DNA of 64,000 bases from an uncultured Gammaproteobacteria bacterium (GTDB lineage: Bacteria; Patescibacteriota; Microgenomatia; Daviesbacterales; UBA10151): contig CAZKCV010000003.1 of NCBI GenBank assembly GCA_964551605.1, forward strand, positions 15,474 through 79,473, in the 5' to 3' direction. Position 1 is the first letter of the stretch. Each line of letters begins with the position of its first letter. The notes under the pieces were generated by a model. It was given only the letters and a program-made list of their open reading frames with translations, did no database searches and was not told where the DNA came from. Made by a program: the position numbers and the translations under genes. Positions 32,702-48,860 of this stretch are shown in pieces.

Positions 32702-34480
32702 ATGACTGCCCTGAGTAGAATTAAGGATTTAGAATTAGGAATTAAACTTTTCATACCTTTATTCTTTATTCTTATTGCTTTATTCTTACCCAACCCTGCC
32801 TTTGCCCAAACCGCTTCCTCAAGTGCTGCAGCTCTAGCGCCTGCCACCTATAACCTACCACCTACCGTCTCCCCTGTTTCCCCGCTTTATACTGACCTGT
32901 TAGTAAATAATATGTTCCATACTTTTTCCTGCCTGGCTATTGGCCAATCAATCATCGGCCAGCCTTGTTTAACTTATCAACTAACCCAAAATGCCCAAGG
33001 CATGCTGCAAGGAGTGCCGGTTCTTTCCCAGACTAATTTATCAGGAGGGGCTTTAGGCGGCGTCACTTCCGTAATAGGCATGCTATACACCAATCCGCCG
33101 GTTCGGACTGCCGATTATTTAGCCAGCGTAGGAGAGGGTTTAGGTGTAGTCAAACAGGCTCATGCCCAAGGGGTAGGCGGTTCCGGAGCGGCAGTTCTAA
33201 ACCCCATCCTAAAACTCTGGCAGGTTTCCCGGAATATTTCTTATGTCATACTCATTCTTATCTTTCTGGTAATCGGACTGATGGTCATGTTTAGGAATAA
33301 AATCAACCCACAGACAGTTATCACAGCCCAAACAGCTTTACCGGGACTGGTAATCGGCCTGGTCATGATTACATTTTCCTACTTCTTTGCCGGCCTGATT
33401 TCCGATTTGGCCTTTGTAGGGACAAATGTTGTAGGTTTTTATTTTACAACCGCACAGAATAAGCCACCCGAAGATTTAACACAAAAAATCTCAGGTAGTA
33501 ATATCTTGAATATCATGGGCTCGCTTACAGGAATTATCGAAAGCGGAGATGTTGCTAGCTTTTCCGGCATACTGTTTGACTCTCTCGGTGGTGAAGCCCA
33601 AAAAGCCATCCGGATCTTGGTATTTTGGCTGAGTTCCCAGTTCGTATCAGGCTTAATACCAGACGTAGGAGGAACCGGTAATGCTTTGACACCCTTAATA
33701 AAACCCATTGCCGGTATTATCACAGGAATAGCAACAAATGCCATGATTTCTCCCCTGCTGGGACAATTTTTAAGTCTTGCTGCAGCTTTAGCCTTAGTCT
33801 ATCAACTACTCAAACTACTATTTAAGTTAATTATGACCTGGCTGACAATTATTTTTTTAACCATCATAGCACCATTTCAGTTTCTTTTTGCCTCCTTGCC
33901 GGGCAGACAAGGAATGGCTACCGGTTGGATGCTAAACATGTTGGGTAACATCCTAGTGTTTCCGGCTGTTATAGCTGTAATTTATTTTGTCGCTTTTTTA
34001 CTGGGTCCTAGATTTGCAGCCAACTGCCCCAAAGATAATACTGGTTCTTGTCTGATTCAAATTTCTGCTGTTAACCAACAAGATGATAGTATTTTAGCAG
34101 CACCAGTATACGCAGCGGATAGTAATGATGTAATCGGAACTCATGCTTTCCCTTTATTTGGGGGAATGGATTTAAGTTGGATTCAAATATTACTGGCTTT
34201 TGGGGCCTTAATGGCATTACCGGCAATACCTGATATAATAGTAAGAACTGTTGGAAAGGCAGGACAAGCAGGACAAATGATTGGACAAGAAGTTGTGGGT
34301 GGCGGCAGAACCGGCCAGGGTTTTGCCCAACGGAGCTATAGCTCAGGTATCCAAACCGGACAGACCTGGAAAACAGGTCTCCTTGGTGAAACACAAGTTT
34401 TGCCGTCAGGCGACACTAAGGTAGTAAAACGCGGTCTATTTAGAAATGTCTACGGATGGGGAGTGGGGAGGAAACCTTAA
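32702..34480 (+). CDS. VirB6/TrbL-like polytopic inner-membrane T4SS component
   Basis: 592 aa with a signal peptide and at least six TM segments separated by loops. It sits directly after the pilin array, as in VirB/Trb operons. Confidence 0.5.
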   Translation: MTALSRIKDLELGIKLFIPLFFILIALFLPNPAFAQTASSSAAALAPATYNLPPTVSPVSPLYTDLLVNNMFHTFSCLAIGQSIIGQPCLTYQLTQNAQGMLQGVPVLSQTNLSGGALGGVTSVIGMLYTNPPVRTADYLASVGEGLGVVKQAHAQGVGGSGAAVLNPILKLWQVSRNISYVILILIFLVIGLMVMFRNKINPQTVITAQTALPGLVIGLVMITFSYFFAGLISDLAFVGTNVVGFYFTTAQNKPPEDLTQKISGSNILNIMGSLTGIIESGDVASFSGILFDSLGGEAQKAIRILVFWLSSQFVSGLIPDVGGTGNALTPLIKPIAGIITGIATNAMISPLLGQFLSLAAALALVYQLLKLLFKLIMTWLTIIFLTIIAPFQFLFASLPGRQGMATGWMLNMLGNILVFPAVIAVIYFVAFLLGPRFAANCPKDNTGSCLIQISAVNQQDDSILAAPVYAADSNDVIGTHAFPLFGGMDLSWIQILLAFGALMALPAIPDIIVRTVGKAGQAGQMIGQEVVGGGRTGQGFAQRSYSSGIQTGQTWKTGLLGETQVLPSGDTKVVKRGLFRNVYGWGVGRKP

Positions 34481-39454: not shown

Positions 39455-39823
39455 ATGACTAACTTCAATTTTCAAAACCTGAGCGTCTATAAAAAATCCC
39501 TGGATTTTTGTGAGCAGATTTATCAAACTACAAAGACATGGCCTAAGGAATACTCGTTTGATATAACAAGCCAACTAAGAAGAGCTTCGCTGTCAATATC
39601 TTTAAATATAGCAGAAGGCACAAGCAGGACGAAAAAGGAATTCAGCAGGTTTCTTGATATTGCCCGTGGTTCATGTTTCGAATGCGTTGCATTAATAGAA
39701 ATAGGTGTGAAATTAACCCTTATAGAAAATACTCTGAAAGCTAGATTTCTCATGGATCTAGAAGAATTATCTAAAATGCTTTCCGGTCTTAAGAAATCTA
39801 TGAACTATGAACTCAAGGCGTGA
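39455..39823 (+). CDS. four-helix-bundle protein (23S rRNA IVS protein family), second copy
   Basis: 122 aa. NLSVYKKSLDFCEQIYQ...LRRASLSISLNIAEGTSRTKKEFSRFLDIARGSCFECVALIEI matches TIGR02436-type proteins. Confidence 0.75.
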   Translation: MTNFNFQNLSVYKKSLDFCEQIYQTTKTWPKEYSFDITSQLRRASLSISLNIAEGTSRTKKEFSRFLDIARGSCFECVALIEIGVKLTLIENTLKARFLMDLEELSKMLSGLKKSMNYELKA

Positions 39824-40914: not shown

Positions 40915-41655
40915 ATGAACACTACACAACAACATCTGGCTGTTAGGGATATTCACGGTGACATTCTGATTCTCAAAGACGGCGGAGGCGCCCTGGTGCT
41001 GCAGGTTTCAGCTGTTAATTTTGGCTTGCTTTCCGAACGTGAACAGATGGCCATTATCCAAAGTTTTGCCCAAATGCTTAATTCGTTATCTTTTAGCCTG
41101 CAGATTGTCATTCATTCCGAAAGGCTTAACTTAAGCTCTTATCTGACGCTTTTGGAAAAAGCCCAAAAAGCTCAGACTAATCCGCTGCTGTCGCAAATGA
41201 TTACCGACTATAAACAATTCATACAAAGTGTAGTTAAAGACATGGAAGTACTGGATAAAAAATTTTATATTATCATTCCTCTGTTTAGCATAGAACTAGG
41301 TCTAACTGCCTCCAAAGCTAATTTAGAACAAAAAATTAAAACCGTACTCACGCCCAGAAAAGATCAGGTCATCAGACAACTGCAGCGGGTAGGACTGCAG
41401 GCTGTTCAATTAGACAAAGCAAAATTAATTGAGGTTTTCTATGATATCTATAACGGAGAACAAATCCAGCCGGCTGAATCAGTTCAACTACAGGACCTGG
41501 CAGTCAGGCTCAAAAATCCGCAACCCAGTCAAGCCGGTCCGCAAGCCAATATACCGCCACCTATCCAACAACCCACTCCTCAACCAGTTCAGGCACCAAC
41601 TGCCACCCAAACAGCAAGAAACCATCCTTTTATTGTAGAGGAGCTGGAAGCATGA
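40915..41655 (+). CDS. VirB4/TrbE N-terminal domain protein (split from the ATPase domain)
   Basis: 246 aa. LAVRDIHGDILILKDGGGALVLQVSAVNFGLLSEREQMAIIQSFAQMLNSL matches the VirB4/TrbE N-terminal pattern. Ends in a Pro/Gln-rich tail and overlaps the next ORF by 4 nt (ATGA). Confidence 0.5.
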   Translation: MNTTQQHLAVRDIHGDILILKDGGGALVLQVSAVNFGLLSEREQMAIIQSFAQMLNSLSFSLQIVIHSERLNLSSYLTLLEKAQKAQTNPLLSQMITDYKQFIQSVVKDMEVLDKKFYIIIPLFSIELGLTASKANLEQKIKTVLTPRKDQVIRQLQRVGLQAVQLDKAKLIEVFYDIYNGEQIQPAESVQLQDLAVRLKNPQPSQAGPQANIPPPIQQPTPQPVQAPTATQTARNHPFIVEELEA

Positions 41656-43409
41656 AACTACCAAGTTTACTTAAAAAAACAAAGCAAACTGATCCGGCGA
41701 TTCCTCAGTTAACTCTGGAGGATGTTCTGGCACCGGCTGAACTGGAAGTAGATTTTAACTACCTAAAAGTAGACGGCCGCTTTTTCAGAACCTATTTTGT
41801 GTCTAATTATCCCCGCTATGTTGATCCCAACTGGCTGGAGCCGTTAATTTCCTTTGACCATACCCTGCTCATTTCCATGTTTATTTATCCTTCCCAATCA
41901 CAAGGGGTGCTGGATGAGCTTAAACGCAAGGTAGCTGAGATGGAAGCCACCATCCAAACAGACCTGGAGCGGGGCCGGGCTATTGACCCGGCAGTAGAAG
42001 TCGCTTTAGAAGATGCCAGGGGCTTGCAGGACCAGCTGGTCAGGGGGGTAGAGCGGTTTTTCCAGTTTGGTCTCTATATTTGTGTACCGGCTGCTTCCCT
42101 GGAAGAGCTGCAAAATACTTCCAAGCTCGTGGAATCTACTTTAGCGGCTCTTTCCATTACCGCCAAACAGGTCATCTTGCAAATGGAGGACGGGTTTAAG
42201 TCCTGCCTGCCCCAGGGTCAGGATTTATTAAACCTAAACCATAATATGGACACCACCTCCCTGGCTACTACTTTTCCCTTTGCCTCATCAGAATTGACTG
42301 CCAACGAAGGTATTATGTACGGAATTAATGAGCATAACGGCTCGCTGATTTTATTTGACAGGTTTAGTTTGGAAAACTTTAATTCAGTTATTTTTGCCAA
42401 AGCCGGGGCCGGCAAATCATACTTTGTAAAACTGGAGGCCTTAAGATCATTAATGTTCGGAGCGGAAATTATCGTCATTGATCCTGAACAGGAATACCTA
42501 CCCCTCTGCCAGGCAGTCGGAGGTGAATATATTAACTTTTCCGCCTCATCACCGGTAAAAATCAATCCCTTTGACATGTCAGGCGAACTGGTACCCGGGG
42601 AAAATGAGCTGGGCCGAAAAATCTTATCTTTAACCAGCTTCTTAAGGATTGTTTTAGGCAACTTAAACGCCCAGGAAACAGCGGTTTTAGACCGGGCCCT
42701 AAAACAAACCTATCAATTAAAAGGCATTACTGATAATCCGGAAACCCAAAATAAAATCCCGCCCTTAATGGAGGATTTATATAAAGTCTTAATCGGGATG
42801 GAAGAAGGCCCGACCATGGAGCTGGCTGCCAGATTAGAGCGCTTCATTAAAGGCTCATTGACCGGTATTTTTTCTGCCCACTCCAATATTGACCTTAAAA
42901 ATTCCTTTACTGTCTTTTCTGTCCGGGATTTGCCGGATCAGCTGCGGCCCTTAGCCATCCATATGATTTTGGAATATGTCTGGACCAAAATCAGGGGGAA
43001 GCTTAAAAAAAGATTATTAATCGTAGATGAAGCCTGGTATTTAATGAGAAACCAGGATTCGGCTGACTTTTTAGTGGATATGGCCAAAAGGGCCAGGAAA
43101 TATTATCTGGGGCTAACTACTATTACTCAGGATGTCGAGGATTTTCTGGCCACTGAGCGGGGCAAGGAAATTATCTCCAACTCCTCCATCCAGGTACTCT
43201 TAAAACAAGCTCCGGCTTCTATTGACCTTTTGGCGGAAGTTTTTAATTTATCAGAAGGGGAACAAAGGCTGCTCATGTCAGAAGGAGTAGGTGAAGGAAT
43301 ATTCTTTGCCGGTAATACCCATGTCGCTATGAGGGTGGTGGCCTCCTCCAACGAGCATGAATTAATTACCACCAGCCCCCAGGAGATCCTGGCCAGACAA
43401 GAAGAATAA
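41652..43409 (+). CDS. VirB4/TrbE-family T4SS ATPase (central and C-terminal ATPase domains)
   Basis: 585 aa. Walker A FAKAGAGKSYFVK, Walker B RLLIVDEAWYLM, and a VirB4-like mid region (RTYFVSNYPRYVDPNWLEPLI). Confidence 0.8.
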   Translation: MKLPSLLKKTKQTDPAIPQLTLEDVLAPAELEVDFNYLKVDGRFFRTYFVSNYPRYVDPNWLEPLISFDHTLLISMFIYPSQSQGVLDELKRKVAEMEATIQTDLERGRAIDPAVEVALEDARGLQDQLVRGVERFFQFGLYICVPAASLEELQNTSKLVESTLAALSITAKQVILQMEDGFKSCLPQGQDLLNLNHNMDTTSLATTFPFASSELTANEGIMYGINEHNGSLILFDRFSLENFNSVIFAKAGAGKSYFVKLEALRSLMFGAEIIVIDPEQEYLPLCQAVGGEYINFSASSPVKINPFDMSGELVPGENELGRKILSLTSFLRIVLGNLNAQETAVLDRALKQTYQLKGITDNPETQNKIPPLMEDLYKVLIGMEEGPTMELAARLERFIKGSLTGIFSAHSNIDLKNSFTVFSVRDLPDQLRPLAIHMILEYVWTKIRGKLKKRLLIVDEAWYLMRNQDSADFLVDMAKRARKYYLGLTTITQDVEDFLATERGKEIISNSSIQVLLKQAPASIDLLAEVFNLSEGEQRLLMSEGVGEGIFFAGNTHVAMRVVASSNEHELITTSPQEILARQEE

Positions 43410-43424
43410 TGATAATCTAAACTT

Positions 43425-45299
43425 ATGGCTATCTTAAATCCTTTAGAACTTACCCGGCTTAAGTCACTGCTTTCAGGAAAAGTGCTTACAACAGAAGAGC
43501 AAATCAACACCTTGGACCTGCTGCGATCCAGGTTTTCTAATTTCTTTTCCAGTCTGGAACCTAATCTAACAGAAGAAAAGCTCAAGGATAATAAATTTCT
43601 TATCAAATACTTATCAAATCCCTATAACAGAAATAAAATCAAAAATGCCCTTCGCAGCGAACTATCCCTGCCTGCAGACCAACAAATCGCCCTGGAACAA
43701 GCGCTCAGCGAAAAGCCTGTTGCAGCAGAAGAAGCCGGTGGACAGTCAACTAACCAAGAAGCAACACCAGCAACCGGTCAAGAAACACAACCAGCAGGAG
43801 CAGCCGGCAGTTCTGCCGTGAACATGCCTTTTGGCGGCATGTCATCCGTTCCCTCTTTCTCTTCCTCCCCGCGTGTTTTTGCAACTCAACAAACCCCGCC
43901 GGTCGGCGGGATGGAAGGCGGCACTGGCCAAGGCACAGCTGCCACCAATAAAGCAGGCCGGAGTTTTAACTTTTCGTCTTTTAGATCTAAGGTGGGATCA
44001 AAAATAACTGGAGCTGCCAGAACCGGACTGGAGAAAGCTAACCCATTTCTAAAACAGATGGGTACCGGAGGAATCAACGCCCTCTCTGGTATGGCTAATT
44101 TCGGCGGGGGACAGGGAGGTATTTTCTCATCATTGGGAAGATTCGGTAAAGGCGGCGGACGAGACAGCTCTTTAGTCAGTAAAGCTAAAGGCAGAGGGGG
44201 ATTGATTTTTGCAGGAGCTTTAATAGGCGCTATGTTTCTGGTAGGAGCAATGGCAGCTTTCGCCCCAAACCCCACCCCTGGCCAGACTGCACCTATAAGT
44301 AATACTTCCGGCCTGGATTATACCCTCCCTTTGAAAAGCACATCTGTTCAACCTTTGGATATTAAAAATCAAGTTACAGCAGCTTTCCCGGGAGCCAAAC
44401 TGGAATATTGGGATAAAATCGTCCAAAGCAGTATAGCTGCCGGATTTAATCCAGCTTTAGCGCTAGCCTTGTGGATTGAGGAGACAGGCGCTTCACACAC
44501 CACGCTTGCCAGAAATGGCGGCAGCGAAATTCCCGTTAACGGAAACTTAACCAAAGGCCATCTGGGCTGTGCGCCAACACAGGACCAGGCCATAGACGAA
44601 AGCTTAAGTTGTTTATTTAAATTTATGGCCACATATAACTTTACCAATGACCAGTTCGCGGATTTTATGGCCAAATATTCCGGAGGACCAACCAACGCTC
44701 CGTTTTCTAACAATCCAAATTTCCCCAAAAATCTTAAGGAGTGGTATTCAAAATTGGTACCTTCCGGAGCCGGAGCCATCGTGGCAGTCACCCCCAGTCC
44801 AATGCCTCAGCAAGCTATAGCTTCTTGCCCTGTAGCCGAAGGACGCATTAGCACGCCTTCTTATAATGCCAGCCCCAATACAGGACACTGTGGAGGTAGT
44901 TATGCTTCTTCTTGTCATTGCGGAACAACAGGCAGAAGAGCCAAAGCTATTGATGTCCCCACCAACGGCCAAAGTGTGGTTCTACCAACCGTCAACGGTC
45001 AATCGGTCAACTGGAAACTCATCGAGGGACCTTACCAAGTAGAGATTGGCGAGGGCGGCGGACAAGGCTATACTTTCCAAGCCAATCAGGGAAACGATAC
45101 CTGGTATCTGGATATGTTGCACTTAAACACATCTTCTCTAGCGCGGAACACAGAGTACCCTTCCGGGACGCCTGTAGCAAAAAGCGCGATTACACACGTA
45201 CATATGACCATAGGCAGAAACTTAAGCAGCCGGCCGATAGCCGGAACTGCAACGGATTGCGACCCCAACTGGCTGCCATCAGACTTTTTATGTCAATGA
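43425..45299 (+). CDS. T4SS-associated putative cell-wall hydrolase (Gly-rich linker, TM segment, C-terminal degenerate M23/LytM-like domain)
   Basis: 624 aa with a TM helix LIFAGALIGAMFLVGAMAAF. C-terminal motifs HCGGSYASSCHC...AIDV...GNDTWYLDMLHLN resemble the HxxxD / HxH of M23 peptidases (inference). Confidence 0.4.
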   Translation: MAILNPLELTRLKSLLSGKVLTTEEQINTLDLLRSRFSNFFSSLEPNLTEEKLKDNKFLIKYLSNPYNRNKIKNALRSELSLPADQQIALEQALSEKPVAAEEAGGQSTNQEATPATGQETQPAGAAGSSAVNMPFGGMSSVPSFSSSPRVFATQQTPPVGGMEGGTGQGTAATNKAGRSFNFSSFRSKVGSKITGAARTGLEKANPFLKQMGTGGINALSGMANFGGGQGGIFSSLGRFGKGGGRDSSLVSKAKGRGGLIFAGALIGAMFLVGAMAAFAPNPTPGQTAPISNTSGLDYTLPLKSTSVQPLDIKNQVTAAFPGAKLEYWDKIVQSSIAAGFNPALALALWIEETGASHTTLARNGGSEIPVNGNLTKGHLGCAPTQDQAIDESLSCLFKFMATYNFTNDQFADFMAKYSGGPTNAPFSNNPNFPKNLKEWYSKLVPSGAGAIVAVTPSPMPQQAIASCPVAEGRISTPSYNASPNTGHCGGSYASSCHCGTTGRRAKAIDVPTNGQSVVLPTVNGQSVNWKLIEGPYQVEIGEGGGQGYTFQANQGNDTWYLDMLHLNTSSLARNTEYPSGTPVAKSAITHVHMTIGRNLSSRPIAGTATDCDPNWLPSDFLCQ

Positions 45300-45824: not shown

Positions 45825-46925
45825 CTAGTTAAGTCTCACCGGCATTACAATATATTCCAATCCTTCAACACCCATTGGCTTAATCAAAGCCGCTGACAGA
45901 GCTCCGGAAAATTCAATCATAATCTGGGTCGCAGGAGCGTTAGAGATAGCATCCAATAAAAACTTGGTATTAAAGGCGATTTTTAACTCTTCTCCTTCAA
46001 TTTCTCCTTCTATTTCATTTTCCTGGCTGCCCAGTTCCTTAGCCTGTGATTCCAGCTTTAATATGCCTTTTTTAGTGGTTAAAACTACTACATTAGCTTC
46101 ATTTTTGGCAAAAATAGCTGCCAGTTTACTGGCTTTTAATAATTCCTCTTTCCCAATCATTGCCCTGGCCACAATCTTTTCCGGGATTATCTTTTCCCAA
46201 GCCGGGAATTGGCCTTCAATTAATCGGGAAGAAACAATCGTATTTCCCAGCTTAAATACTACCTGATTTTGGTTCTGACTGGTGGCAATACCAACCTCTT
46301 CAACTTCTTCTTCAGCTATAATCCGCAGTAATTCCTCAAACGTTCTCCGGGGAATTAAACTCCTAAACTGATCTTTGCCTTTAGGTAATTCAAACCGGCG
46401 GTGGGCTAGCCTAAATCCATCTGTGGCTACAAAATCCAACTTGCCATTAGACACTTCAGTCAATATACCGGTCAAAATCGGCCTGCCCTCATCCACCGCC
46501 GAGGCAAACAGAATTTGCGATGAGATTAAAAAGGCTTCCTTAGGAAAACTGATGCCAGTACCTTCAGCCAAAGGGATAGCCGGAAATTCAGCAGCGGCAA
46601 TCCCGTTAATACTGGCCTTTAGTTTACCGGACTGCACAGTTAAAACTTCATCTTCTGATGTCAAAATCACCTTAGCTTGTCCTAAACCGGAAATAAGCTC
46701 TACTAAAGTCTTGGCAGGCACAGTAACTTCTCCGGGAACTTCAATTTCCGTATTAATATACTTAATTACCCCGATTTCTAGATTTGTGGCTGCTATCTTT
46801 AATTTCTGTCCTTCAGCGGAAAGTAAAATATTATCCAGTACCGGCAAGGTGGAACGGATACCAACTGACCGGGCCACAGCTTGCAATGCAGGCAGTAAAT
46901 CTTGTTGTAAACATGTAAATTTCAT
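45825..46925 (-). CDS. dnaN: DNA polymerase III beta subunit (sliding clamp) DnaN
   Basis: 366 aa. MKFTCLQQDLLPALQAVARSVG is the classical DnaN N-terminus; three-domain length. Confidence 0.9.
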   Translation of the reverse strand: MKFTCLQQDLLPALQAVARSVGIRSTLPVLDNILLSAEGQKLKIAATNLEIGVIKYINTEIEVPGEVTVPAKTLVELISGLGQAKVILTSEDEVLTVQSGKLKASINGIAAAEFPAIPLAEGTGISFPKEAFLISSQILFASAVDEGRPILTGILTEVSNGKLDFVATDGFRLAHRRFELPKGKDQFRSLIPRRTFEELLRIIAEEEVEEVGIATSQNQNQVVFKLGNTIVSSRLIEGQFPAWEKIIPEKIVARAMIGKEELLKASKLAAIFAKNEANVVVLTTKKGILKLESQAKELGSQENEIEGEIEGEELKIAFNTKFLLDAISNAPATQIMIEFSGALSAALIKPMGVEGLEYIVMPVRLN

Positions 46926-47380
46926 TATTTCTCTCTTGAGCCGGAAACGAATCTATGAACCTCTTCTTCTGTTACTTTAATTAATCTGAAATTAACTCTT
47001 CCAGATGCAATAAGGTTTTTAATGTGTTTTTCTTCATCTGTCAAGACATGAAACTCCCCGGACTTTACTTCAATAAAATCAATCCGCTCGTTATTTTTAA
47101 TACCAATAAAATCAATCGGCCAACCTAAAGGAATAATCCGGTCATAGTCATACCGAAGTTCGGCATAAGTTAATAACTCTGCCATTTTACCCTTTTGAGG
47201 ATTGATTGACCCCTGTATAGTTTGCAGCACCCTGGCCGGTAAATCCTGTACTCCCCGGTAAAGATCAATTAGATCTGAAGGAATATCCACAGATTTTCTA
47301 GCATGCAATCTGCCGATTAAATAAGTGATTACCAATAGTAACACTAGTATTCCCAGTAATACCCAGTTAATTTTATCCAC
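46925..47380 (-). CDS. membrane-anchored PD-(D/E)xK nuclease-like (NERD/Mrr-cat-like) hypothetical protein, inserted between dnaA and dnaN
   Basis: 151 aa. N-terminal TM helix; DFIGIKNNERIDFIEVKSGEF resembles the D...E-x-K core of restriction-endonuclease-fold proteins (inference). Confidence 0.4.
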   Translation of the reverse strand: MDKINWVLLGILVLLLVITYLIGRLHARKSVDIPSDLIDLYRGVQDLPARVLQTIQGSINPQKGKMAELLTYAELRYDYDRIIPLGWPIDFIGIKNNERIDFIEVKSGEFHVLTDEEKHIKNLIASGRVNFRLIKVTEEEVHRFVSGSREK

Positions 47381-47384
47381 AAGT

Positions 47385-47550
47385 CGTTCGATTATACTAC
47401 ATCATATTAATAATAATAGTAATAGTAATATGTGGTGTGGATATGTGTAAAAACCAATTTTTCCGTTCACTTTTGGGAGAATTTCGTGTGAGTAAATTCC
47501 TGATATTTGTGGAAAAGTAGGTGGATAACTGACTTTACCCGGTGGATAAT
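47385..47550. promoter_or_regulatory. candidate oriC segment: AT-rich unwinding-like stretch plus DnaA-box-like 9-mers downstream of dnaA
   Basis: attaataataatagtaatagtaatat (47405-47430). tgtggatat at 47436-47444. ggtggataac at 47520-47529. ggtggataat at 47541-47550, which lies inside the dnaA 3' end. Confidence 0.45.
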
Positions 47551-48860
47551 TGTTGCCTTACTTCAATAGAAATCCGCTGGATTTCCCTGTCTGTTAATAT
47601 CAGTTTTTTGATTTTATCCCGGCCGTGCATAACTGTAGTGTGATCTCTGCCGCCTAACAGTTCTCCGATTTTTTCCACAGTCATGTTTAACTGGTCGGAT
47701 AAAATGTGCATAACTAAATGTCTTGGCAAAACTAACTCTTTGACTCTTTTAGGCCCGGTTAAGTCAGTATGCTTGACCTTAAAGTAGTCACAAACTACAT
47801 TAATCACCTGCTTGGGGGAAAGAGCTTTCAATTCACTTTCGCTTCGTCCTCCCAGCAAAGATCGGACATTTTCCACAGTTGGCTCCATGCCCTTGGTTTT
47901 TAAAGATTGCAGTACCTGGATTAATTTTCCCTCCAGGTCCCTGGCGTTTGTTTCAACTGAAGCTGCCACTAAATTTAAACAATTTTCTTCCAGGAGAAAA
48001 TTTTGTTCCTTGCATTTATTTTTTAATATGGCTACCCGGGTGTCAAAATCCGGAGCTTGGATGTCGACCATTAGCCCGCCCTGGAAGCGGCTTTTTAAGC
48101 GGTCTTCCAGTTTGGCGATTTCATAAGGGGGCCGGTCCGAGGTGATGACAATCTGGGAATTCCTGGCGGATAATTCATTAAAGGTGTGGAAAAACTCTTC
48201 CTGGGTGCCTTCCCGGCCGGAGAAAAACTGGATGTCATCAATCAGCAAAATATTAACGCCCCGGTAGCGGTTCCTAAATCTGCCAAACTGCTTGGTCTGT
48301 AGCGCTTCCACATAGTCGTTGGTAAATTTTTCAGAAGAGCAATAATTGACTTTGAAGTGAGGATGCTTTTTAAGTATGGCATTGCCAATGCCTAACATCA
48401 GGTGAGTTTTTCCTACGCCGGTTCCCCCGTAGACAAAAAGCGGATTGTAGGATGTGCCGGGATTTTGGGCTACAGCTTGGGCAGCCGCAAAAGCTACGTT
48501 ATTGGTGGGTCCCACCACAAAATTTTCCAGGGTATATTTCGGGTTAAGGTCAGAGGTGACAGCAGTTTGAACAGGCTGGAAGAAATCCTGCTCCTCAGCC
48601 GGAGGTGCTGTTTCATGTTCCTTGATGATGAATGTAACTTGTACCTTATTGCCCAGCAGGTTTTCAAAAGCCTGTTCAATCAAGGCCTTAAATTTTTGAT
48701 CCAGGTTTTCTTTAATGAAGGCTGAAGGAGCAGATAAAACAATCAGCCCCCCATTAGCTGATTTTAAAAGGGTTTTCAAAAAGTAGGCTTTAAAGTTGTC
48801 AGGCCCGACTTGGGGTTTAATGGTTTGCAAAAATTTATGCCAGAGGCGGAGATTGTCCAT
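47535..48860 (-). CDS. dnaA: chromosomal replication initiator DnaA
   Basis: 441 aa. AAA+ Walker A GGTGVGKTHLM, box VII, and a C-terminal DNA-binding domain (VVCDYFKVKHTDLTGPKR...RHLVMHILSD). Confidence 0.9.
   Translation of the reverse strand: MDNLRLWHKFLQTIKPQVGPDNFKAYFLKTLLKSANGGLIVLSAPSAFIKENLDQKFKALIEQAFENLLGNKVQVTFIIKEHETAPPAEEQDFFQPVQTAVTSDLNPKYTLENFVVGPTNNVAFAAAQAVAQNPGTSYNPLFVYGGTGVGKTHLMLGIGNAILKKHPHFKVNYCSSEKFTNDYVEALQTKQFGRFRNRYRGVNILLIDDIQFFSGREGTQEEFFHTFNELSARNSQIVITSDRPPYEIAKLEDRLKSRFQGGLMVDIQAPDFDTRVAILKNKCKEQNFLLEENCLNLVAASVETNARDLEGKLIQVLQSLKTKGMEPTVENVRSLLGGRSESELKALSPKQVINVVCDYFKVKHTDLTGPKRVKELVLPRHLVMHILSDQLNMTVEKIGELLGGRDHTTVMHGRDKIKKLILTDREIQRISIEVRQQLSTG

Follow-up and report, generated by a model that had tools for sequence, protein, structure and literature searches.

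A probable two-gene VirB4 ATPase in a chromosomal type IV secretion locus of Candidatus Daviesbacteria

Sequence and structure comparison of a 64,000-nucleotide stretch of contig CAZKCV010000003.1 (positions 15,474 to 79,473, hereafter the window; all positions below are counted from its first letter) indicates that the VirB4 ATPase encoded there is very probably a natural two-gene protein. The first open reading frame (ORF1) encodes a TrsD/TraD-like protein that corresponds to the first ~180 residues of the VirB4 N-terminal domain, and the second (ORF2) encodes the second N-terminal subdomain together with the ATPase, in a chromosomal type IV secretion system (T4SS) locus. A sequence-only reading of this DNA had described two ORFs of 246 and 585 amino acids, overlapping by ATGA in the -1 frame, and had offered a natural domain split, a programmed frameshift or a sequencing or assembly error as explanations. 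The ORF list, the sequence and the frame offset of 2 (equivalent to -1) of ORF2 relative to ORF1 bear out the description, and both frames are real genes, with 1544 database homologues for ORF1 and at least 8000 for ORF2. The relevant features are:

40915..41655, plus strand: ORF1, TrsD/TraD-like protein of 246 amino acids with ATG start (ORF list, profile searches, homologues)
41461..41619, plus strand: disordered Pro/Gln-rich tail of ORF1, amino acids 183-235 (low model confidence, comparison of homologue tails)
41620..41652, plus strand: C-terminal peptide NHPFIVEELEA of ORF1, amino acids 236-246 (conservation among close homologues)
41638..41643, plus strand: Shine-Dalgarno-like GAGGAG within ORF1, 8 nucleotides 5' of the ORF2 ATG (sequence reading)
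41652..43409, plus strand: ORF2, VirB4 core of 585 amino acids with ATG start (conju_CD1110, Pfam, P0159 alignment, Foldseek)
42396..42419, plus strand: Walker A motif AKAGAGKS, ORF2 amino acids 249-256 (translation and P0159 alignment)
43014..43031, plus strand: Walker B motif LLIVDE, ORF2 amino acids 455-460 (translation and P0159 alignment)

The identity of ORF2 is clear. Against the conju_CD1110 profile it scores 376.5 bits (cutoff 325, E 2.5e-112), over model positions 181-734 of 752 only, and its Pfam matches are P-loop_TraG (E 1.6e-26), AAA_10 and DUF87; both the Walker A and the Walker B motif are present. The protein does not contain a complete VirB4 N-terminal domain, as it begins at model position 181, and it is ORF1 that encodes the missing first subdomain. 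ORF2 thus comprises the second N-terminal subdomain and the RecA-like ATPase domain of VirB4. The earlier assignment of the ATPase to this frame was right, whereas its allocation of the whole N-terminal domain to ORF1 was not, since the second half of that domain is also carried by ORF2.

ORF1 was compared with Pfam and NCBIfam using the curated cutoffs of each model. The VirB4 N-terminal pattern noticed in the sequence-only reading is present, and ORF1 aligns to VirB4 N-terminal regions by profile, by comparison with a fused homologue (see below) and by fold. Matches were obtained to NCBIfam VirB4_plasma (model positions 132-282, E 3e-10), to conju_CD1110 (positions 26-172, E 5e-6) and to the TrsD/TraD model NF041427 (positions 14-200 of 201, E 1.2e-7); on these profile alignments ORF1 is a distant TrsD/TraD homologue that falls below the curated membership threshold. 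A profile of the ORF1 family (A1) aligned to TrsD of the Staphylococcus aureus plasmid pC229_1 with an hhalign probability of 95.5% (E 1.5e-8, 175 columns). The Pfam scan of ORF1 returned only TraC_F_IV at 15.7 bits (cutoff 28.1) and no PF26593; this TraC-like family is precomputed for P0001, a database protein identical to ORF1, and for all 120 listed homologues. The AlphaFold2 model of ORF1 has a predicted local distance difference test score (pLDDT) above 90 over residues 10-180. When it was searched against the PDB with Foldseek, the best 14 matches were all to TrwK/VirB4 of plasmid R388 (probability 0.99-1.00), and the probability dropped to 0.23 at the first non-TrwK match. Searching PDB sequences with the family profile gave a single chance-level match (DciF, E 0.37), so that the VirB4 identification of ORF1 in the PDB comes from the fold search and not from sequence. 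We conclude that ORF1 is the first subdomain (~180 residues) of the VirB4 N-terminal domain and is TrsD/TraD-like.

Together the two products cover positions 26-734 of the 752 positions of conju_CD1110, in order. With ORF1 at positions 26-172 and ORF2 at 181-734, both are therefore colinear with a single-chain VirB4, and by this alignment the break falls inside the VirB4 N-terminal domain, not between the N-terminal and ATPase domains. The same picture emerges from P0159, a full-length VirB4 of 787 amino acids (conju_CD1110 positions 3-735) and one of 150 listed representatives: ORF1 residues 2-185 align to its residues 8-204 with 45% identity, and ORF2 residues 26-585 to its residues 213-773 with 64% identity. 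The combined length of ~831 amino acids, which had been equated with that of a normal VirB4, agrees only roughly, because ~64 residues of the ORF1 tail and ~25 residues at the ORF2 N-terminus have no counterpart in P0159. The two window sequences were also joined and modelled as a single polypeptide; fused homologues from the database served to bridge them in the alignment. The resulting AlphaFold2 model (pLDDT 82, predicted template-modelling score 0.76) superposes on whole TrwK (TMq 0.70, TMt 0.73, about 890 alignment columns), and Foldseek matches it to the C-terminal domain of VirB4 from T. pseudethanolicus with a TMt of 0.87.

The split is conserved among relatives. For ORF1 the best 120 of the 1544 homologues were compared (60-100% identity, mostly Candidatus Daviesbacteria); all are free-standing proteins of 210-269 amino acids, or 239-269 if one partial sequence is set aside. 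The best 120 homologues of ORF2 have 569-608 amino acids and are likewise all of the split form. Nine related genome loci were retrieved, of which eight are long enough to display both genes, and in all eight these are separate. The junction itself varies. In the window it reads '...gtagaggagctggaagcATGa', with the ATG of ORF2 (41652-41654) overlapping the TGA of ORF1 (41653-41655) in ATGA (41652-41655). The same ATGA overlap is found in L001, L002 and L007, while L003 has TAAtATG (a 1-nucleotide gap), L004 an 8-nucleotide overlap, L008 a 4-nucleotide gap and L005 a 127-nucleotide gap; in more distant lineages the two genes lie 163 and 212 nucleotides apart. The L005 spacer (1728-1854) shows that overlap is not obligatory; it opens with tandem 'aatttaca' repeats. 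The frame offset is 1 in five of the related loci and 2 in three of them and in the window. Five of the loci (L003, L005, L006, L007 and L009) carry the label 'uncultured Gammaproteobacteria bacterium (binchicken)'. They are Daviesbacteria-type loci with 50-66% identity to ORF1, and the labels are probably wrong.

These data bear directly on the two other explanations offered before. If ribosomes were programmed to shift to the -1 frame towards the end of ORF1, a fused VirB4 of 830 amino acids would result, besides or instead of two proteins. This would fit the -1 position of ORF2 and the fact that the ORF2 frame in the window is open for 174 nucleotides 5' of its ATG. We nevertheless regard programmed frameshifting as very improbable. 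A scan of 41470-41655 found no slippery heptamer of the form X_XXY_YYZ in the ORF1 frame, ORF2 has its own ATG with a well-spaced GAGGAG, the frame offset differs between loci as described, five related loci have a stop codon in the ORF2 frame only 6-21 nucleotides before its start codon, and at some junctions the genes are separated by 1-212 nucleotides of intergenic sequence. Still less credible is that an otherwise continuous virB4 gene was broken by an indel from sequencing or assembly, or by a frameshift that recently made it a pseudogene. Fused VirB4 genes of similar total length do occur in a sister clade, as this explanation would expect, but a protein identical to ORF1 is present on two contigs from two source collections (NCBI and Logan), the closest 120 homologues of each ORF are all split, and a scan of the ORF1/ORF2 junction found no homopolymer. 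Moreover, ORF1 ends and ORF2 begins with a conserved peptide, and a random break would yield neither. The error reading is refuted by the comparative data. The retention of the split, the variation of junctions and frames and the lack of a slippery site or homopolymer together exclude a conserved programmed frameshift as well as an error of sequencing, and the split is a natural, selected two-gene arrangement, the first of the three explanations originally proposed.

The sequence-only reading had also proposed a comparison of fused and split forms in related genomes, and this comparison gave a clear pattern: close relatives are split, and fused forms are found in a Candidatus Amesbacteria-like sister group. 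P0159 occurs in two independent assemblies (L010, L011) in the order PrgI, VirB4, M23 peptidase, one more gene, dnaN, dnaA. When 240 VirB4 hits were pooled from the ORF2 search and a search seeded with P0159, 43 proved to be fused, with the TrsD-like domain at the N-terminus and lengths of 783-897 amino acids; all 43 belong to the Amesbacteria-like group and none to the Daviesbacteria hits. Fused and split forms are interleaved within this clade (P0159, P0391-P0506; L010, L011, L016, L017). In L016 and L017, the split relatives nearest to the fused forms, the TrsD-like gene encodes a protein without tail (198 and 217 amino acids) and overlaps the core gene by ATGA. At the L016 junction the first protein ends in '...GTRVKAL*' and the second begins with 'MKDLNTAKSVPDVLAP...', whereas a fused form reads '...GTRVKFETKSVPDLIAP...'; the two are colinear. 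This colinearity of junction and linker implies that the fused and split states interconvert through small local changes, and argues that the pair of chains serves the same function as the single one. When 230 VirB4 cores were placed in a neighbour-joining tree, at least 6 changes between the states were required, but the tree is poorly resolved, with very short internal branches and at least one 'short' tip (P0414) that is a partial sequence. We therefore claim that the state has changed more than once or is labile, without committing to a number or a direction. The interchange within one clade amounts to a clean natural experiment and indicates that the one-chain and two-chain motors are functionally equivalent. 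A further type of VirB4 gene in related Patescibacteria is interrupted by an intein (P0428, P0429, P0432, P0438, P0439, P0480, P0482, P0491 and P0507); these homologues have 1158-1215 amino acids with intein and homing-endonuclease domains (PF14890, PF14528).

The C-terminal part of ORF1 has no counterpart in fused VirB4. The Pro/Gln-rich tail noted earlier is indeed present (about amino acids 183-236), but its description as linker-like does not hold. It is predicted to be poorly ordered (pLDDT 57-68 when ORF1 is modelled alone, below 50 in the joined model) and it is hypervariable in sequence and length, with homologue tails ranging from 0 to about 500 low-complexity amino acids; it is missing in fused P0159 and in the split L016 and L017. 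The tail ends in a peptide in which H-P-F-[VI]-V-E-E-L is invariant in 119 of the 120 close ORF1 homologues, the lone exception being a partial sequence. Among representatives at 50% identity, PFxVEEL is kept in 31 of 149 and a PP[IL][PA]EI ending is found in 23 of 149. The latter ending was observed in other Patescibacteria, after tails of up to about 500 amino acids. Fused orthologues, tail-less split relatives and staphylococcal TrsD lack the C-terminal peptide. We thus regard the tail as a lineage-specific disordered extension ending in a strictly conserved peptide, not as a leftover linker.

Conservation of the peptide as a mere side effect of the Shine-Dalgarno sequence embedded in its codons was considered and rejected. 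The codons vary synonymously between loci, and the peptide is retained where ORF2 starts 127-163 nucleotides away, so that the constraint is on the protein and not only on the embedded ribosome-binding sequence. Another candidate explanation was that the peptide binds the conserved peptide 'MKLPxLFKK' with which ORF2 begins. This idea was weakened by L017, which has a similar ORF2 peptide although its TrsD-like protein has neither tail nor motif, and also by AlphaFold, which leaves both segments unstructured. As a hypothesis, the tail and its C-terminal peptide probably dock to a partner. More tentatively, HPF[VI]VEEL/PP[IL][PA]EI may be an undescribed short motif by which the detached N-terminal module of VirB4 docks to the ATPase ring, to another T4SS partner or to a substrate, in which case gene fission would have provided a new, tunable interaction arm that is lost on re-fusion. 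The peptide seems to be undescribed so far and is a concrete handle for finding the interaction partner.

The arrangement of the genes suggests how the two-chain VirB4 could be made and could work. GAGGAG located 8 nucleotides before the ORF2 ATG, together with the ATGA overlap, points to translational coupling; we infer from the sequence that ORF1 and ORF2 are co-transcribed and coupled, which would favour matched amounts of both products. The two polypeptides would then associate non-covalently to a VirB4-like protomer, which would oligomerise at the membrane on a PrgI/VirB3-like protein. In the R388 structures, the N-terminal domain of VirB4 is reportedly the part that contacts VirB3. Because of this contact, the ORF1 module is likely to be a membrane-anchor adaptor that lies towards the membrane, at the VirB4-VirB3 interface. 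By the same analogy with R388, the ATPase ring formed by ORF2 would supply the ATP hydrolysis that powers assembly or transport.

Several points weigh against a two-chain VirB4. The score of ORF1 with NF041427 is 31.8 bits, compared to a curated cutoff of 200. Packing of the VirB4 type is favoured by treating the two sequences as one polypeptide and by including fused homologues in the alignment, and the joined model leaves the tail and the C-terminal peptide unplaced (residues 183-254, pLDDT below 50). The physical association of the two products is a prediction from such models, and operon structure, expression and coupling are deduced from nucleotide sequence alone. Furthermore, the TrsD homologues of Gracilibacteria are not adjacent to virB4 (PMC12102498), which means that some members of the family may act independently. 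One could accordingly propose that ORF1 is a free-standing accessory protein of VirB4 N-terminal ancestry, for example an adaptor or regulator that recruits a component or substrate via its tail and peptide. Such a role would suit the tail and the invariant peptide, neither of which has a counterpart in fused VirB4, the range of tail lengths (0 to about 500 amino acids), the faster divergence of ORF1 (60-89% identity among the top hits, vs 80-96% for ORF2), the location of the Gracilibacteria homologues away from virB4 and the lack of an assigned function for TrsD (PMC12102498). On the other hand, within one clade fused and split orthologues replace each other while the junction stays colinear and the synteny does not change, the subdomain that ORF2 lacks is present in every fused VirB4, the joined model superposes on whole TrwK, and adjacency and overlap of the two genes are conserved. 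We consider an accessory protein unlikely, and prefer the natural two-gene VirB4.

The surroundings of the gene pair are those of a chromosomal secretion locus. The following features were found next to it, in a Pfam scan that covered the window genes between 32.7 and 50.4 kb:

32702-34480, plus strand: ORF of 592 amino acids
34491-38090, minus strand: ORF of 1199 amino acids
38178-39314, minus strand: ORF of 378 amino acids
39846..40904, plus strand: PrgI/VirB3-like membrane protein of 352 amino acids (Pfam PrgI PF12666, E 1.7e-7, 32.2 bits, cutoff 27, amino acids 5-93)
43425..45299, plus strand: protein of 624 amino acids with no family match (Pfam and NCBIfam searches, synteny)
45825-46925, minus strand: dnaN (Pfam)
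46925-47380, minus strand: small Holliday-resolvase-like endonuclease gene between dnaN and dnaA (PF10107, E 2e-8)
47535-48860, minus strand: dnaA (Pfam)

The PrgI-like gene opens the block, giving the order PrgI, ORF1, ORF2, and a PrgI gene has the equivalent position at loci L010, L016 and L017. Its product has a C-terminal CarboxypepD_reg-like domain in Pfam (E 4.6e-5, score under the cutoff). Directly 5' of this gene lies a gene for a 23S rRNA-intervening-sequence protein (39455-39823; PF05635, E 1e-31). The slot of the 624-amino-acid protein downstream of ORF2 is occupied in related loci by a Peptidase_M23 (cell-wall hydrolase) gene. Pfam and NCBIfam searches with the window protein gave no match, and BLASTP detected no similarity to the M23 protein of L010; the protein has a Gly/Ser/Gln-rich region. 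The dnaN-dnaA neighbourhood is common to L010, L012, L016 and L017, and the PF10107 product between these genes is related to archaeal Holliday-junction-resolvase-type endonucleases. With dnaN and dnaA adjoining, the secretion locus has an origin-proximal, chromosomal context in Candidatus Daviesbacteria (Patescibacteria); VirB4, TrsD-like and PrgI/VirB3 genes cluster near dnaA and dnaN as in the Patescibacteria-type chromosomal T4SS. The three ORFs of 1199, 378 and 592 amino acids on the other side gave no Pfam match. The 378-residue product has a Cys-rich, zinc-ribbon-like C-terminal segment (CRVCPICQ...CPKCRAVKRCG).

For annotation, these results mean that a 246-amino-acid 'hypothetical protein' preceding a short Patescibacteria virB4 gene is best read as the detached first VirB4 subdomain (TrsD-like), and not the product of a frameshift or a pseudogene. 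The build of the T4SS motor also bears on how Patescibacteria exploit their hosts, because the system proved essential for growth as an epibiont in the sole Patescibacteria strain tested genetically, according to citations of Wang et al. (2023).

The S. aureus plasmid pC229_1 has the same gene order as the window: the TrsC (VirB3-like) position is taken by a hypothetical gene, and trsD (227 amino acids) and a DUF87/VirB4 ATPase of 670 amino acids follow. The ORF1 family profile aligns to residues 33-218 of the staphylococcal TrsD, so the split is at an equivalent point. Unlike the window genes, trsD/trsE are plasmid-borne, dedicated to conjugation and separated by a 20-nucleotide gap instead of an overlap. 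Staphylococcal TrsD ends about 9 residues past the domain, without Pro/Gln tail or HPFVVEEL, and sequence identity is only about 21%. Single-chain VirB4 proteins form the conju_CD1110 family of monoderm conjugation systems, and the fused Patescibacteria orthologues (P0159 and relatives) are of this type. The fused orthologues have the same domain order and the same PrgI-VirB4-...-dnaN-dnaA synteny as the window, but consist of one polypeptide of 783-897 amino acids in which a linker of 10-42 residues takes the place of the junction; the tail, the C-terminal peptide and the separate N-terminal peptide of ORF2 are all missing from them. TrwK/VirB4 of R388 (cryo-EM structures 7O41-7O43, 8RTB and 8RTD) shares its fold with ORF1 and with the joined model. 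It is, however, a single chain from a diderm conjugative system with 12-15% identity, and contacts with VirB3 and VirB8 are transferred from it by analogy.

Another homologous pair is found in an unannotated region of replicon p1 of Streptomyces sp. BHT-5-2 (L019, 2976-5797), where an ORF of 319 amino acids overlaps a VirB4 core of 621 amino acids by 4 nucleotides. The first protein contains a TrsD-like domain (hhalign probability 97.5%), and among the plasmid-collection hits to ORF2 the core ranks first (38% identity, 96% coverage). The pair differs from that in the window in its actinobacterial host and in the TrsD-like domain, which occupies residues 144-307 and is preceded by a different N-terminal extension. 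Actinobacteria are hosts of some Patescibacteria.

The closest known system is the TrsD and VirB4 pair of Patescibacteria described by Quinonero-Coronel et al. (2025, PMC12102498). TrsD was reported there to be remotely homologous to the VirB4 N-terminus and to be the most abundant T4SS component in Patescibacteria, with 2272 homologues, of which 1664 are located next to virB4; one homologue appears there as an essential gene of Ca. Southlakia epibionticum. The same study assigns TrsD to the pGO1 subclass of monoderm conjugation systems and places Patescibacteria secretion loci beside dnaN/dnaA. The window shares with this system the phylum, the block of PrgI/VirB3-like, TrsD-like and VirB4 genes and the dnaA/dnaN position, and nothing essential differs. 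When the text of PMC12102498 was searched, neither protein length nor disordered tails, Amesbacteria or inteins came up, and the fused forms, the ORF1 tail of varying length and its C-terminal peptide appear to add a little to that account. Since the split into TrsD and VirB4 is already described both in Patescibacteria (2025) and in staphylococcal plasmids of the pGO1 subclass, the window is an ordinary, common example; mild novelty lies only in the conserved peptide at the ORF1 C-terminus and in the interchange of fused and split forms in Microgenomatia-type lineages.

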